The notes beneath the pieces were generated by a model, which was given only the letters and a program-made list of their open reading frames with translations, was not told where the DNA came from and did not search any database. Shown piece after piece: positions 6,444 to 14,432 of a stretch of 64,000 nt of DNA. The stretch covers positions 38,235 through 102,234 of the forward strand of contig JAUIHP010000014.1 in NCBI GenBank assembly GCA_030431975.1, given 5' to 3'. The translations under genes and the position numbers were made by a program. Position 1 is the stretch's first letter. The number at the start of each line of letters is the position of its first letter. The DNA is from a bacterium. Lineage in GTDB: Bacteria > Eisenbacteria > RBG-16-71-46 > CAIMUX01.

Positions 6444-6845
6444 CTATTCCTCGTCCTCCAAGTCCGCAGCTCGTGCTGCGGGCTTGGTGTCTTCCAAAAC
6501 ATCCAACAAACGAACCTGTTGATCCGTGACTCCAAGGACGTACTCGCGCGACCCGGACCGGACGACACAAACGGAACGTCGACCGCCGAGGTGAAGCTGC
6601 TCGACCATCTCCAGTCTTCCCTTGCCGACCAGACGCCCTCCGAGGAACTTCGGAAGGACCCACTTGATCACCGCGTAGATGATGAAGCTGATCAGCGCCA
6701 GATAGAGCACGGTCTGGATCAGGGTTCCGAGCGGATCGATTTCCCGAAGACCCGGACCGAGCGACGACTCGAGAGAATCCGCGCTGACCTGGGCCCAGGC
6801 CGATCCGAAGACCATCGGGGCAATGCCTGTCACCACAATTGCCAT
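6444..6845 (-). CDS. FliO-like single-pass membrane protein between sctQ and sctR (flagellar-type export-gate assembly factor)
   Basis: TM helix (LIQTVLYLALISFIIYAVIKWVL) followed by GRLEMVEQLHLGGRRSVCVVRSGSREYVLGVTDQQVRLLDVL. This matches the FliO pattern (…ERVVVVDV.D.RLVLGVT..QINLL) and FliO's gene position. Start uncertain; the ORF runs to 7079 through a low-complexity region. Confidence 0.6.
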   Translation of the reverse strand: MAIVVTGIAPMVFGSAWAQVSADSLESSLGPGLREIDPLGTLIQTVLYLALISFIIYAVIKWVLPKFLGGRLVGKGRLEMVEQLHLGGRRSVCVVRSGSREYVLGVTDQQVRLLDVLEDTKPAARAADLEDEE

Positions 6846-6978
6846 CACAGTGCGGAGGGTCGCACCGGCGAGGGCGGCGACATCCACGGCGCCTGTAGCG
6901 ATGCTCGAACCGGTGTCGCCAGTCGCGGCTGCGGAGGTTTCCGAAGCGCCGTCCGCAGCGTCTTTCGGGGACCGTGGC

Positions 6979-8412
6979 CTAGGTGAGCTCGGCAATGCGT
7001 ACGCCCAACTCACCGTCGACCTTGACCAGATCTCCGACACCGATGACGCGGTCTTCGACGACCAGGGAAACCGGCGCACTGGGATCCCGTCCCATCTCGA
7101 TTACGGATCCCGGACTCAGCTGAGCCAGTTCACGAAGGGTCAACCGGATCCGGCCGAGCTCGACACGAACGGTGACCGGGGTCTCTTCCGCGACCTGGCG
7201 ACCCGCGCCGGACGTGTCACCGGGCGCCGTATCGCCCGGATGCGTCGACTCCGGATCCGGACCGGTGTTTTGCGAAGTGTCATTCATGATCTTTGCCTCC
7301 GATTCTTCGGCGTGACGACCCGGTACGATCGATTCGATGCGAACGCGCAAGGTCTCCGCGTCGTCCTCGATCTGAGTCTGCAGGCGAACGAGTCCGTCCT
7401 GTGAATGCGCGAGCGGCAACTCGCCGCTCAGGTGTTGGCCGTCCCACTGGAAGTTTCCGGTGTCGAAAAGAAGAATGTCTGTCGGTTCCAGACGCTCGAT
7501 GTCACCGAGGGTGAGGGCCGCGGCTCCCAGTCGTCCCCGAAACTCCACCGGGTAGGATCCAAGGGTTCGGAACCAGTGGTCCGAGCGCGAACGGCGACCC
7601 ATTTGGTCGCCCGCGGAAATCTGTCCGGACTTGCGGGCGTTGCTCAAAGCGCGCCACGGGACGGCCAGACGGAACGGAAGGGAAAGTTCGGCGACGACGA
7701 GAACGCCGGATACGGTGTACCAGTCCTTCTTGCCGCCATTGCCCCAATCCAAAGGAGCGTTTTCGCTGGCAACATCGAGAACGGTGATCGGCATCCACGG
7801 CGCCAATAGCTGCGACCTCTCGGAAACGCCCGCCGCGATTCGCTCGGCAAAGAAGGCGAGCACTCCCTTTTCGACGGTGGAGATAAGGTCGGAAGCGCCG
7901 AGACGTTCCGGTGCGACATCGACGACCGCACCGACGATGGAGCGGACGGCAGCCAAGGGCATTTCGAAAACGGCACGCAGGTCGGGTTGTCCGAGTCCGT
8001 AGTGAACCCGTACGGAGTGCGGTCCTCCGTCCCAGGGATCGGATTCGGCCGGACCGTGTCGACGGATGTGGACGAACTCGTCGACGGAGGACGGCGCGCC
8101 CGAGAGGCCGCCCTGCATCGGAACGGTCATCCCCAGAGTGTCCGCCGTCGTCTCGGGACTCTTGGACGACGGGGCCGTCGAGCTTGCGGCCCGGGAGGCC
8201 AGGCTTGCTTCCGGTCGTTGAAGTCTTTGCAGAGTGATCCCAACCGCTCTACGCAGTTGACGGAAGGCTTCCGGGCCGGGGAGGACCCGCGAAAGCTCCT
8301 GCATGGCGTCGACTTCCGTCCGCGAAAGCTCGGGGATGTCTTCAAAGCGATAAGGCTGGGCGCTCATCGTTGCGGCGGTGTCTCCGCGATGCTCCTTCCA
8401 CGTTACGACCAT
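6979..8412 (-). CDS. sctQ: T3SS cytoplasmic-ring / sorting-platform protein SctQ (FliM/FliN-YscQ family, C-terminal SpoA domain)
   Basis: C-terminal SpoA/FliN motif (TVRVELGRIRLTLRELAQLSPGSVIEMGRDPSAPVSLVVEDRVIGVGDLVKVDGELGVRIAELT). 477 aa; alternative start at 8367. Confidence 0.85.
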   Translation of the reverse strand: MVVTWKEHRGDTAATMSAQPYRFEDIPELSRTEVDAMQELSRVLPGPEAFRQLRRAVGITLQRLQRPEASLASRAASSTAPSSKSPETTADTLGMTVPMQGGLSGAPSSVDEFVHIRRHGPAESDPWDGGPHSVRVHYGLGQPDLRAVFEMPLAAVRSIVGAVVDVAPERLGASDLISTVEKGVLAFFAERIAAGVSERSQLLAPWMPITVLDVASENAPLDWGNGGKKDWYTVSGVLVVAELSLPFRLAVPWRALSNARKSGQISAGDQMGRRSRSDHWFRTLGSYPVEFRGRLGAAALTLGDIERLEPTDILLFDTGNFQWDGQHLSGELPLAHSQDGLVRLQTQIEDDAETLRVRIESIVPGRHAEESEAKIMNDTSQNTGPDPESTHPGDTAPGDTSGAGRQVAEETPVTVRVELGRIRLTLRELAQLSPGSVIEMGRDPSAPVSLVVEDRVIGVGDLVKVDGELGVRIAELT

Positions 8413-8424
8413 GGGTCACAAGCC

Positions 8425-12711: not shown

Positions 12712-12738
12712 GCCTTTCCCTCTTGCCGTTCCTCTCGG

Positions 12739-13386
12739 CTACTTGCCGCTGTTCTTTTCCAGGAGAGCCTTTTCGAGCACGCGAAGCTGCGTTTCCAGTC
12801 GCGCGTCGACGATACCGAGAGGGGTTTCGACGCGGCATCCGCCTTCTTCGATGTTGGCGTCGGGCACCAGGTCCAACTCGACACTGGAGCCGATTTCATC
12901 AACGAGTCGGGCGCGTTGGGCTTTCAGAACCTCGAGGTCCTGAGGCCGCACGCGAATCTGGATTCGACCGTCGTGCTGCAGGCCGCGCACCGCTTGAAGT
13001 ACGAGGTCGCCGATGAGTTCGGGACTGGATTGCAGCTCCCGACCCAGGATCTTCCGCGCGATGCGAACGGCCAGGCGGGTGACGTTCTCCCGAAGAGACT
13101 CCAGCCGCGCTGTTTCGGCCTGGGCCGCCTGCGTGACGCGATCCGTCCACTGCGCGAGTCCATGCGCGTAGCCGTCTTCATGAGCCTGCTTCCGAATGGT
13201 CTCGGCCTCCGCACGAGCGGTCTCGATCAGCGTGTTTGCTTCTGCGCGAGCCGTTTCGACGATGGTCTTTGCTTCGGTCCGTGCGTCGGCGACTTCGCTC
13301 TTGATGACGCGTCGACCACCTGACTCGATACGGGTCGAGGCCGGTCGTTCGGCGGATCCTCCGTCGCCTTTCAGAATCTTGCTCAC
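12739..13386 (-). CDS. sctL: T3SS ATPase stator/regulator SctL (FliH/YscL family)
   Basis: C-terminal FliH-like region (LAVRIARKILGRELQSSPELIGDLVLQAVRGL…VPDANIEEGGCRVETPLGIVDARLETQL). Start re-assigned to GTG 13386, which overlaps the upstream stop (GTGA); the ORF to 13539 would overlap the upstream gene. Confidence 0.8.
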   Translation of the reverse strand: MSKILKGDGGSAERPASTRIESGGRRVIKSEVADARTEAKTIVETARAEANTLIETARAEAETIRKQAHEDGYAHGLAQWTDRVTQAAQAETARLESLRENVTRLAVRIARKILGRELQSSPELIGDLVLQAVRGLQHDGRIQIRVRPQDLEVLKAQRARLVDEIGSSVELDLVPDANIEEGGCRVETPLGIVDARLETQLRVLEKALLEKNSGK

Positions 13387-14432
13387 GCTTCTTCTCCCCG
13401 GCCCGGTTTGCGGCGGGCCTTCAGGATCACGTTCATGCACTCGCGGATTTGGACCGTTCTCTTCTCTACGAAATCGGCGGAGTAGGCCGTTCCGTCCACC
13501 GGCTTTCCGGTGAGTGCGGTCGCCGCCTTGGCCTGCCAATGGAAGAGATGGCGGGTCAGGTCATACGACATCCGCTGGGCGACGGCTTGAGTGTAGGCGA
13601 TCGGACGGCTTCCCAATGCCTCGGCCAGGATGGCCAGACCGATGAGCCCCACGATTTGGTTGTCGTCGCCACCGATCGAGAAAGAGGCGCGGATGTAGGC
13701 CGTACTTCGCTCCAGATCCGGGTCGGCATTGGTTTCCGGTTCGGGGCCGGGGCCGATATCTCCGACCTGCGGCAGCCCGAGCCACTTCCGCATCCGGGCC
13801 GAGTCCGTCGGACTCATTCCGGCGAGCAGCCGTGTCACCGAAGCCGAGCCGGATTCGGCCAGAACTTCGACTTCGCAACGACCCAGTTCCTGCACCATCA
13901 GCCAGATTTCCGCTCCCGTGAAGGAAAGCAGCGGGTGAAGTTCGTCCTCGCGCTCGAGATCCGCGAAGTGAACGTACGGTGCGAAGAGTTTGCGACGAAA
14001 CGCGCCGGCGTGGGCCGGGGAGAGGGGCCGGACATCCGCGACCGCATCGCCGGGCTGCTTCGGACGGATCTGCGGCCACAGGTCGCGCAAAACACTCCGC
14101 GCCAGATCAGGGGACAGTTCCCCCAGTGCCAACAGGAAGAGCGCGGGCGGTTCGTTGCGCAGTGCTTCTTTCATCCAGCTGGGATGAAGGTCGGTGGCTT
14201 CGTCGACGCGCCGCAGCGTGTCCCGCTTGGCCCACGTGATGCGCATGGACTTGCGCGACTCGGCGGGTAAGGCGCGGAAGCTTTGGTAAAGCGAGTTCAT
14301 GTCCTCGTCGGCGAGCTGAGGCACACGCTCGCCGAGGTCACCTTTCGGCGCCTGCCCGGCCCAGTCCATGGCGAGGAGAAATCCGCGGGTAAAGGCACGG
14401 ACTTCGCCAAGGTTTCGGGCCGAGGCGGACAC
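13383..14432 (-). CDS. Cytoplasmic protein in the SctK position with FliG-like motifs (rotor/C-ring-like)
   Basis: 349 aa, no TM. EPPALFLLALGELSPDLARSVLRDLWPQ resembles the FliG/MgtE-N ARM motif (Q.iAlIL..L.pd.AA.VL..Lpe). AEIWLMVQELGRCEVEVLAESGSASVTRLLAGMSPTDSARMRKWL resembles the FliG C-domain. Sits between sctJ and sctL. Confidence 0.55.
   Translation of the reverse strand: MSASARNLGEVRAFTRGFLLAMDWAGQAPKGDLGERVPQLADEDMNSLYQSFRALPAESRKSMRITWAKRDTLRRVDEATDLHPSWMKEALRNEPPALFLLALGELSPDLARSVLRDLWPQIRPKQPGDAVADVRPLSPAHAGAFRRKLFAPYVHFADLEREDELHPLLSFTGAEIWLMVQELGRCEVEVLAESGSASVTRLLAGMSPTDSARMRKWLGLPQVGDIGPGPEPETNADPDLERSTAYIRASFSIGGDDNQIVGLIGLAILAEALGSRPIAYTQAVAQRMSYDLTRHLFHWQAKAATALTGKPVDGTAYSADFVEKRTVQIRECMNVILKARRKPGRGEEA

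Follow-up and report, generated by a model that had tools for sequence, protein, structure and literature searches.

A type III secretion cluster from Candidatus Eisenbacteria with FliO and a FliG-like protein in the position of SctK

A stretch of 64,000 nucleotides from contig JAUIHP010000014.1 (assembly GCA_030431975.1, positions 38,235 to 102,234; hereafter the window) was analysed. It has a base composition of 62% G+C, and the nearest relatives of its proteins are found in metagenome-assembled genomes of Candidatus Eisenbacteria. Pfam and NCBIfam searches demonstrated one co-linear type III secretion cluster on the minus strand, at approximately 2.5–15.9 kb, with the gene order orf176, sctJ, X, sctL, sctN, sctO, sctP, sctQ, fliO, sctR, sctS, sctT and sctU, followed beyond sctU by an open reading frame (ORF) of 145 residues and an LcrH-like gene with tetratricopeptide repeats (TPR). 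The gene between sctQ and sctR encodes a true FliO. The protein between SctJ and SctL, called protein X here, belongs to a family homologous to FliG; this homology is solid for the family and, for the window protein, transitive yet well supported. [quoted passage not shown] Its injectisome-type traits are a ring of the short SctJ lipoprotein, a single SctQ, the set SctL, SctN and SctO, a protein in the SctI position, and TPR chaperones resembling LcrH and YscG. Its flagellar traits are the gene order fliF-G-H-I-J-K...N-O-P-Q-R-flhB, FliO itself, a FliA-like sigma factor and a full-length, very diverged FliG homologue.

Results

FliO between sctQ and sctR

The longest ORF of the fliO gene spans 6444–7079 on the minus strand, and the public gene call covers 6444–7013 (189 residues). 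The Pfam model FliO (PF04347) matched with 48.7 bits (E = 8.1e-13; gathering score 22), and the NCBIfam model TIGR03500 with 48.9 bits, just short of its cut-off of 55.25. A strong hydrophobic helix at ORF residues 116–147 (Kyte-Doolittle window above 2.0) precedes the Pfam domain, located at residues 140–203. As judged from hydropathy, the protein is bitopic: its transmembrane helix leads into a small domain in the cytoplasm. Upstream of the helix there is a segment resembling a signal peptide. The gene is flanked by sctQ and sctR, in the same order as fliN-fliO-fliP of E. coli, and is kept at this site in the co-linear relative L013 with 45% identity.

The sequence-only reading of this DNA had placed a FliO-like gene here, and both models bear this out. 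Its accompanying view that FliO is specific to flagella is outdated, since FliO homologues within non-flagellar operons were reported in 2025 for Myxococcota, especially both systems of Myxococcus xanthus, and for several Pseudomonadota (PNAS 2025, PMC12403147). Because of that report, the FliO part of the finding is not new. As in the operons described in the available text, the FliO homologue of the window is encoded directly upstream of sctR; the difference lies in the host lineage only, Eisenbacteria not being among the lineages named there.

Relationship of protein X to FliG

The gene for protein X starts with GTG at 14432, 2 nt past the stop codon of sctJ, and overlaps the start of sctL by 4 nt. 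The public gene call begins at the ATG at 14369 and gives 328 residues; it is probably 21 codons too short, because the N-terminal motif FTRGFLLA, conserved in homologues of X, is encoded upstream of that ATG. A word-indexed search yielded seven close homologues, and when the profile of these seven was run exhaustively with HMMER through 1.84 billion representatives, only 29 proteins of the family were retrieved, most of them of about 280–365 residues. Those from Acidobacteriota carry the NCBI name 'FliG C-terminal domain-containing protein'. The 30 collected members were used for a Pfam scan of single sequences, for a family profile and for a second structure model.

When scanned one by one, 11 of the 30 members matched FliG_M (best E = 2.6e-7) and 7 matched FliG_C (best E = 3.1e-10); FliG_N was matched weakly by 3 and MgtE_N by 5. 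The 30-member profile was compared with all PDB sequences using HMMER, and the top 13 matches were all FliG (best E = 6.8e-8). For hhalign, a FliG reference profile of nine species was assembled from E. coli and from plasmid or chromid records. The whole X family aligned to it with 96.2% (E = 2.3e-9), and the ten most distant members with 97.8% (E = 8.8e-13), the latter alignment being co-linear along 267 columns that run from FliG_N to the C-terminus. The twenty closer members alone gave 43.5% (E = 2.4e-4), and the seven closest E = 0.025. The control alignments, one reversed and twenty column-shuffled versions of FliG, scored 10–14 (E of at least 0.5 for the shuffled ones) versus 72 for the true alignment. 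The close and the distant subfamilies of X are themselves homologous (99.8%, E = 1.7e-28, 310 columns).

In both the HMMER and the hhalign alignments, EPPALFLLALGELSPDLARSVLRDL of protein X corresponds to the 'EHPQ' ARM segment of the FliG middle domain. The glutamate of this segment is nearly invariant in the X family (E73), the window protein has PPA instead of HPQ, and the position equivalent to FliG R160 in the HMMER alignment is not a conserved arginine. Furthermore, MSPTDSARMRKWL aligns to a repeat in the C-terminal half of FliG, which is NMSQRAADILRDDL according to local alignments and ARM_C according to the co-linear one; the exact equivalent is ambiguous because FliG is internally repetitive. 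The co-linear alignment, uncertain here from the same internal repeats, puts RMSYDLTRHLFHWQ of the window protein opposite NMSQRAADILRDDL of FliG, and in it no charged residue of the window protein faces K264, R281, D288, D289 or R297, the MotA-contacting residues of E. coli FliG.

Protein X thus shows the three-part N/M/C architecture of FliG at a similar length of about 330 residues, its family profile matches FliG co-linearly over the N, ARM_M, ARM_C and C-terminal regions, and its gene occupies the same slot between the ring gene and fliH, as in fliF-G-H-I of E. coli. It differs from flagellar FliG in that the window member fails each FliG model when taken alone, and in the change of HPQ to PPA and the loss of the MotA-contacting charges. 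Its ring partner is SctJ with a tail of 23 residues, not FliF with FliG-binding helices, and no stator genes are present in the window. The sequence-only reading had described FliG-like ARM motifs in the protein at the SctK position: these hold at the level of the family profile and of the structure, but the window protein by itself gives no significant match to FliG. The same reading had the right start for the ORF at 13383–14432, as the conserved FTRGFLLA needs the GTG at 14432. Similarity to FliO and FliG was accordingly found by profile in both cases, and for FliG by structure too.

The MSPTDSARMRKWL stretch is present in most of the X family and deleted in the six closest homologues from Eisenbacteria (P0002–P0007). 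These proteins lack about 45 residues of the C-terminal half, comprising two helices and a loop (approximately residues 175–220 of the 328-residue call). An insertion unique to the window protein was considered and rejected, the stretch being ancestral in the wider alignment and deleted in the closest relatives. The shortest members that look full-length have about 290–300 residues, and the family appears to be shrinking in the Eisenbacteria lineage.

Structure model of protein X and comparison with SctK

A first AlphaFold2 model of protein X, based on 7 sequences, had a predicted local distance difference test (pLDDT) score of 72 and gave marginal Foldseek matches with FliG on top. The model based on 30 sequences reached a pLDDT of 89 and a predicted template modelling score of 0.83. 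Foldseek comparison of this model with the PDB placed FliG of four species in 9 of the first 11 places, with E-values of only 0.06–0.5, because the domains of the elongated protein X are oriented differently. The AlphaFold2 weights used predate the release of PscK and no templates were given, so that the resemblance is not a copied one.

The slot between sctJ and sctL is also that of sctK, as in yscJ-yscK-yscL. Protein X shares with the SctK proteins (YscK, PscK, OrgA, MxiK) this slot and a fast evolution, as well as, by analogy, a predicted role in linking the ring to SctQ. Unlike SctK, which has about 210 residues, it is about 120–140 residues longer and is without sequence-profile similarity to it. 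Among the 30 members, none matched an SctK model of the YscK or OrgA/MxiK type in Pfam (PF06578 YscK and relatives) at E ≤ 1. The hhalign comparison with a profile of YscK and Aeromonas AscK, covering the Ysc-type subfamily of SctK only, remained at noise level (E = 0.29, score 14.6), and a sequence link between X and SctK through this profile was rejected. In injectisomes, SctK binds to SctD through the FHA domain that the latter has in the cytoplasm; no SctD gene is found in the window. The crystal structure of PscK was published as a novel fold without neighbours (bioRxiv 10.1101/2020.09.22.308627). The flagellar counterpart of SctK was given as 'FliG (?)' in a 2014 review, where a FliG-like role was proposed (PMC4045390); this entry rests purely on position and role.

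Ring, sorting platform and export gate

SctJ of the window, a protein of 267 residues, has an LAGC lipobox. Besides a C-terminal transmembrane helix it has a tail of about 23 residues in the cytoplasm (RNRSLSRQL...), the motif of which is conserved among the relatives. The protein scored 129 bits with the SctJ model TIGR02544, under the cut-off, versus 35 bits with FliF, which agrees with its description in the sequence-only reading as a short SctJ-type lipoprotein and not FliF. The ATPase SctN passed TIGR02546 with 617.7 bits and failed the cut-off of FliI_clade2 with 614.9 bits; it shares 58% of its residues with YscN, against 46% with FliI of E. coli. SctQ passed the SpaO_YscQ model TIGR02551 (103.3 bits, cut-off 100.8) and failed that of FliN. 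The SpaO/YscQ model covers residues 166–476 of SctQ, and the approximately 165 N-terminal residues outside it are the expected contact region for the FliG-like protein X. With SctL, only the Sct model passed its cut-off. The export gate proteins are less one-sided. For SctR, the models NF009438 (257 bits), TIGR01102 (229.7 bits) and FliP (217.6 bits) all passed, FliP barely. SctS passed the FliQ equivalog (96.9 bits) and failed the SctS equivalog (71.0 bits), the scores for SctT and FliR were 148.2 and 148.0 bits, and SctU (362.6 bits) and FlhB (350.6 bits) both passed their cut-offs. The curated equivalog models are thus split almost evenly between the flagellar and the Sct type, with the SctQ and SctJ models outscoring their flagellar counterparts FliN and FliF. 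Such near-even scores, together with the FliA-like sigma factor, are what a lineage near the split between flagellum and NF-T3SS would look like.

With regard to the nine NF-T3SS core genes of Abby & Rocha, SctJ, SctN, SctQ, SctR, SctS, SctT and SctU are present. No SctV/FlhA, secretin SctC, SctD, FliF, FliE, FliM or MotAB was found in the 64 kb, either with Pfam or by tblastn with references from Yersinia, E. coli and L012. Specifically, the window has no match to the SctV family in Pfam or to LcrD by tblastn, no secretin domain or YscC match and no SctD/FHA gene. Rod (FliE/FlgB/FlgC) and hook genes, which along with FliF would have marked a simple flagellar locus, are likewise not present in it according to Pfam and tblastn, and the right flank beyond the window holds nothing relevant.

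Conservation in relatives

The module consisting of the sigma gene, an ORF of about 180 codons, sctJ, the FliG-like gene, sctL and sctN recurs in the Eisenbacteria contigs L001, L004, L013 and L014 and in the unassigned L009, L010 and L012, and in all seven the X-type gene lies between the ring gene and fliH/sctL. A search for related loci with the narrow X-family alignment yielded only 2 loci per collection. L013 remains co-linear with the window onward through sctO, sctP, sctQ, fliO, sctRSTU and the TPR gene. Identities to the window are 81–87% for SctN, 66–73% for SctR to SctU and 37–45% for the FliG-like protein; SctP, SctQ, FliO and the FliG-like protein taken together are only 33–45% identical to their window counterparts. 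Such a gradient of identity along with a kept gene order points to purifying selection, and thus to function rather than decay. All cluster genes of the window are intact ORFs with coupled starts.

The gene for the FliA/WhiG-like sigma factor adjoins orf176-sctJ or the FliG-like gene in L001, L004, L007, L009, L010, L012, L013 and L014. In every relative it immediately precedes the cluster; in the window it is about 15 kb away, which looks like the result of an insertion or a rearrangement. The gap (15891–31303) contains a DinB-like gene, an unknown gene of 405 codons, and genes for multihaem c-type cytochromes and a cytochrome b (18056–25953).

In the metagenome contigs L010 (6900–8380) and L012 (6840–8356), genes for MotA (MotA_N and MotA_ExbB domains) and MotB (MotB_plug and OmpA domains), encoded on the opposite strand, separate the sigma gene from the genes orf195-sctJ-FliG-like-fliH. 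Only these two loci carry the pair; it is not present in the window or the other relatives. The flanks of L001, L004, L009 and L013 contain no FliE, FlgB/C, hook, FliM or MotAB genes.

The Acidobacteriota loci L007 and L008 have the FliG-like gene between the sigma gene and sctL, with no sctJ or sctN within 10 kb. A protein of 774 residues with a Yop-YscD_cpl/FHA domain and TPRs is encoded directly after the FliG-like gene and sctL (L007:11665–13989, L008:11665–13989). In these loci, an SctD-type cytoplasmic domain, the one that binds SctK in injectisomes, is therefore encoded beside the FliG-like gene.

Other features of the window

The features of the cluster, the sigma gene and a separate operon of small genes are listed in Table 1. 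The protein encoded by orf176 had no match in Pfam, NCBIfam or the PDB; it is a candidate SctI by position, and hhalign versus YscI and FliE gave nothing significant. The vapBC pair, on the opposite strand, splits sctP from sctO and is not present in the co-linear relative L013.

In L010 and L012, homologues of the small-gene operon lie close to type III secretion genes with their order kept; L009 and L007 have a subset of them. It is possible that the operon encodes a candidate exported filament or needle subunit with its chaperones, and its gene order resembles that of pscE-F-G-H. No match of its proteins to SctF or SctE was obtained with profiles from Pfam and NCBIfam or in the PDB. For the 104-residue protein, considered as SctF, the Pfam, NCBIfam and PDB profiles and hhalign versus YscF were all non-significant. 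Of the SctE-, SctF- and SctG-like genes previously suggested outside the cluster, what remains is an operon conserved near type III secretion genes with a TPR protein weakly resembling YscG, but profile support is lacking for SctF and SctE.

The remainder of the window contains multihaem cytochromes, secreted hydrolases with C-terminal domains of the type IX secretion system (T9SS) type, and housekeeping genes. Large secreted proteins with M43 peptidase, FG-GAP/ASPIC and NHL-repeat regions (26728–28527, 35638–39559, 43851–46298) end in domains of the FlgD_ig/Por_Secre_tail type, which suggests T9SS-like sorting in the organism, unrelated to type III secretion.

Table 1. Positions of the type III secretion genes and associated genes in the window, in window coordinates.
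Feature	Coordinates	Strand	Evidence and remarks
orf176, conserved 176-residue protein in SctI (inner rod) position, candidate	15362–15892	-	near-invariant C-terminus; present upstream of sctJ in L001, L004, L010, L012 and L013
sctJ, inner-membrane ring lipoprotein	14435–15238	-	PF01514, E = 1.8e-22
Protein X, FliG-like in SctK position, 349 residues	13383–14432	-	between sctJ and sctL
sctL/fliH, stator and ATPase regulator	12739–13386	-	PF02108 FliH, E = 7e-20; TIGR02499 SctL, 87.6 bits (cut-off 78.7)
sctN/fliI, ATPase	11371–12711	-	PF00006 and T3SS_ATPase_C
DUF2905 membrane mini-protein, 72 residues	10987–11205	-	between sctN and sctO
sctO/fliJ, stalk protein	10442–10804	-	PF16789 YscO-like, E = 1.6e-10; FliJ, E = 1.5e-3
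PIN-domain toxin	10030–10428	+	inside the type III secretion operon
vapB-like antitoxin	9740–10030	+	inside the type III secretion operon
sctP/fliK-like length-control protein, T3S4-type C-terminal domain, 345 residues	8425–9462	-	PF02120 Flg_hook, E = 8.5e-10
sctQ, single FliM/FliN-type sorting-platform protein, 477 residues	6979–8412	-	PF01052 FliMN_C, E = 1.1e-22
fliO	6444–7013	-	PF04347, E = 8.1e-13; start 7079, 7013 or 6845
sctR/fliP	5585–6430	-	PF00813, E = 7.8e-71
sctS/fliQ	5294–5566	-	PF01313
sctT/fliR	4473–5291	-	PF01311, E = 3e-55
sctU/flhB, switch protein	3385–4446	-	PF01312, E = 8e-117
TPR protein, LcrH/SycD-like class II chaperone candidate	2497–2892	-	downstream of sctU; TIGR02552 LcrH_SycD, E = 2.3e-8, under its cut-off; conserved after sctU in L013
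FliA/WhiG-like sigma factor	30584–31303	-	TIGR02479 FliA_WhiG best match, 134 bits, under cut-off 189.6
Small-gene operon, four genes	42131–43663	-	homologues near type III secretion genes in relatives
87-residue protein of small-gene operon	43400–43663	-	
104-residue protein of small-gene operon	43089–43403	-	
TPR protein of small-gene operon, about 132 residues	42577–42975	-	YscG, E = 0.027; HrpB1, E = 0.0037; both weak
126-residue protein of small-gene operon	42131–42511	-	

Discussion

By analogy with the characterized machines, FliO of the cluster would chaperone the assembly of the SctR pentamer in the export gate. The FliG-like protein X would no longer act as a torque-generating rotor, because the MotA-contacting charges are lost and part of the C-terminal half is missing from the closest relatives. 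It may serve instead as a static adaptor by which the SctQ-SctL-SctN sorting platform is suspended below the SctJ ring. The N-terminal part of protein X is predicted to bind the cytoplasmic tail of SctJ, which is conserved, and its ARM_M segment, with the nearly invariant glutamate of EHPQ, on the FliM-like N-terminal domain of SctQ. SpaO's N-terminal domain has been shown to resemble the FliG-binding middle domain of FliM (PMC9907115). Protein X would in this manner do the job of SctK, and would be the probable evolutionary source of SctK.

Several observations weigh against an early-type NF-T3SS with a FliG-derived adaptor. The homology of the window protein to FliG is drawn through intermediate sequences: searched alone, it had no Pfam match at E ≤ 1, no NCBIfam match at E ≤ 0.01 and none among PDB sequences, and the profile of its 7 closest relatives found no FliG in the PDB at E ≤ 10. 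FliG is, moreover, part of a wider ARM-like superfamily that includes MgtE_N, matched by 5 of the 30 X members, and at the level of sequence profiles the X family is unrelated to YscK/AscK. The placement as early-branching may be taken from the near-equal equivalog scores only, and all functional statements on the cluster are made by analogy. The occurrence of MotA/MotB beside the cluster in L010 and L012 is unexpected for a machine that does not rotate. Finally, the scope is the 64-kb window, and flagellar genes or a secretin may be located elsewhere in the genome.

A first alternative is that the cluster, instead of being related to injectisomes, encodes the core for export and C-ring in a flagellum-like motor that is highly diverged or reduced, with the genes for FlhA, rod, hook, filament and stator elsewhere and protein X still a rotor contacted by MotAB. 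Such a motor would account for the flagellar gene order, FliO, the FliG homologue, the FliA-like sigma factor and the FliQ-type SctS, for the MotA/MotB genes that two relatives have directly between their sigma gene and orf195-sctJ, and for the SctV/FlhA gene not found in the window, by which parts of the system are encoded elsewhere. We regard it as unlikely, since the ring is made of a 267-residue SctJ lipoprotein and not FliF, in place of FliM and FliN there is one SctQ protein, which passes the equivalog model for SpaO/YscQ, and the ATPase is nearer to YscN than to FliI. Neither the 64 kb nor the flanks of L001, L004, L009 and L013 contain FliE, FlgB/C, hook, FliM or MotAB genes, the charges of the torque helix are lost, and about 45 residues of the C-terminal half are deleted in the six closest relatives.

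Quite improbable is an ordinary injectisome in which protein X is a diverged SctK and the FliG signal stems from a generic ARM/MgtE_N-like helical repeat, by convergence or very old superfamily kinship, instead of descent from the flagellar fliG gene. The position between sctJ and sctL is that of sctK, but it is equally the fliG slot of fliF-G-H-I operons. MgtE_N is matched by some members and the close subfamily alone barely detects FliG, yet FliG, not MgtE, tops every PDB search, and the match to FliG is co-linear over about 270 columns in proteins whose length of about 330 residues is that of FliG, against about 210 for SctK. In addition, no YscK or OrgA/MxiK match was obtained among the 30 members, and the YscK/AscK comparison stayed at the level of noise. 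A decaying, non-functional remnant of a flagellar or type III secretion locus, as the inserted vapBC pair, the sigma gene displaced by about 15 kb and the lack of SctV and secretin in the window might suggest, is very improbable, given that all genes are intact with coupled starts and that order and content are kept across contigs in which SctQ, SctP and the FliG-like protein are only 33–45% identical and SctN is still 81–87% identical; the same argument against decay was made for the myxococcal loci (PMC3459982), and a role in predation was afterwards demonstrated for that of M. xanthus (cited in PMC10433427).

The early-type NF-T3SS with FliO and a FliG-derived adaptor that is favoured here finds its nearest known parallel in the Myxococcales. 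Needle-less and secretin-less systems of that order, without FliE and FliG, are positioned at the base of the NF-T3SS tree (Abby & Rocha 2012, PMC3459982), and the T3SS* of M. xanthus is described, without SctK and FliG, as comprising SctD, J, I, Q, RSTUV, N and L and chaperones of the LcrH type (PMC10433427). The window shares with them the core of SctJ, a protein in the SctI position, SctL, SctN, SctQ and SctRSTU, the LcrH-like TPR chaperones, a locus with no secretin gene and, according to PMC12403147, FliO in the operon; it resembles in particular the 'short' myxococcal locus without SctD. It differs in its phylum, Eisenbacteria, with relatives in Acidobacteriota, in the locus being without SctV, in the conserved small-gene operon with a candidate exported subunit, and in having the FliG-like protein X, whereas the myxococcal systems are reported without FliG. 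No Myxococcus protein is among the 29 X-family representatives. A second parallel is found in Chlamydia, where a short FliF is fused to the M domain of FliG, which was proposed to reflect an ancestral complex (Bergeron 2016, PMC4768692). The chlamydial case likewise joins, in a lineage without flagella, a short ring protein resembling SctJ to a cytoplasmic module derived from FliG; in contrast to the chlamydial fusion, the window has separate genes, a full-length FliG-like protein instead of the M domain only, and a complete cluster from sctJ to sctU.

No paper describing a type III secretion system of Eisenbacteria, or a FliG homologue inside an NF-T3SS cluster, was found in the literature, and the FliG/SctK half of the finding appears to be new. 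The path from flagellum to injectisome is known only in outline, and the origin of SctK is one of its unsolved points; a FliG-like protein in the SctK slot makes this origin testable. Tentatively, the rare X family could be a surviving intermediate between the FliG rotor and the injectisome adaptor SctK, although we hold this to be the less certain part. If true, SctK would be a shortened FliG that no longer generates torque, and the manner in which the ring carries the sorting platform would be inherited from the flagellar C-ring. The relatives with adjoining MotA/MotB may have a stator-coupled non-flagellar system. The cluster widens the range of early-type systems that contain FliO and have no needle from Myxococcota to Eisenbacteria and Acidobacteriota, which suggests that such systems are older and commoner than the pathogen-centred picture implies.

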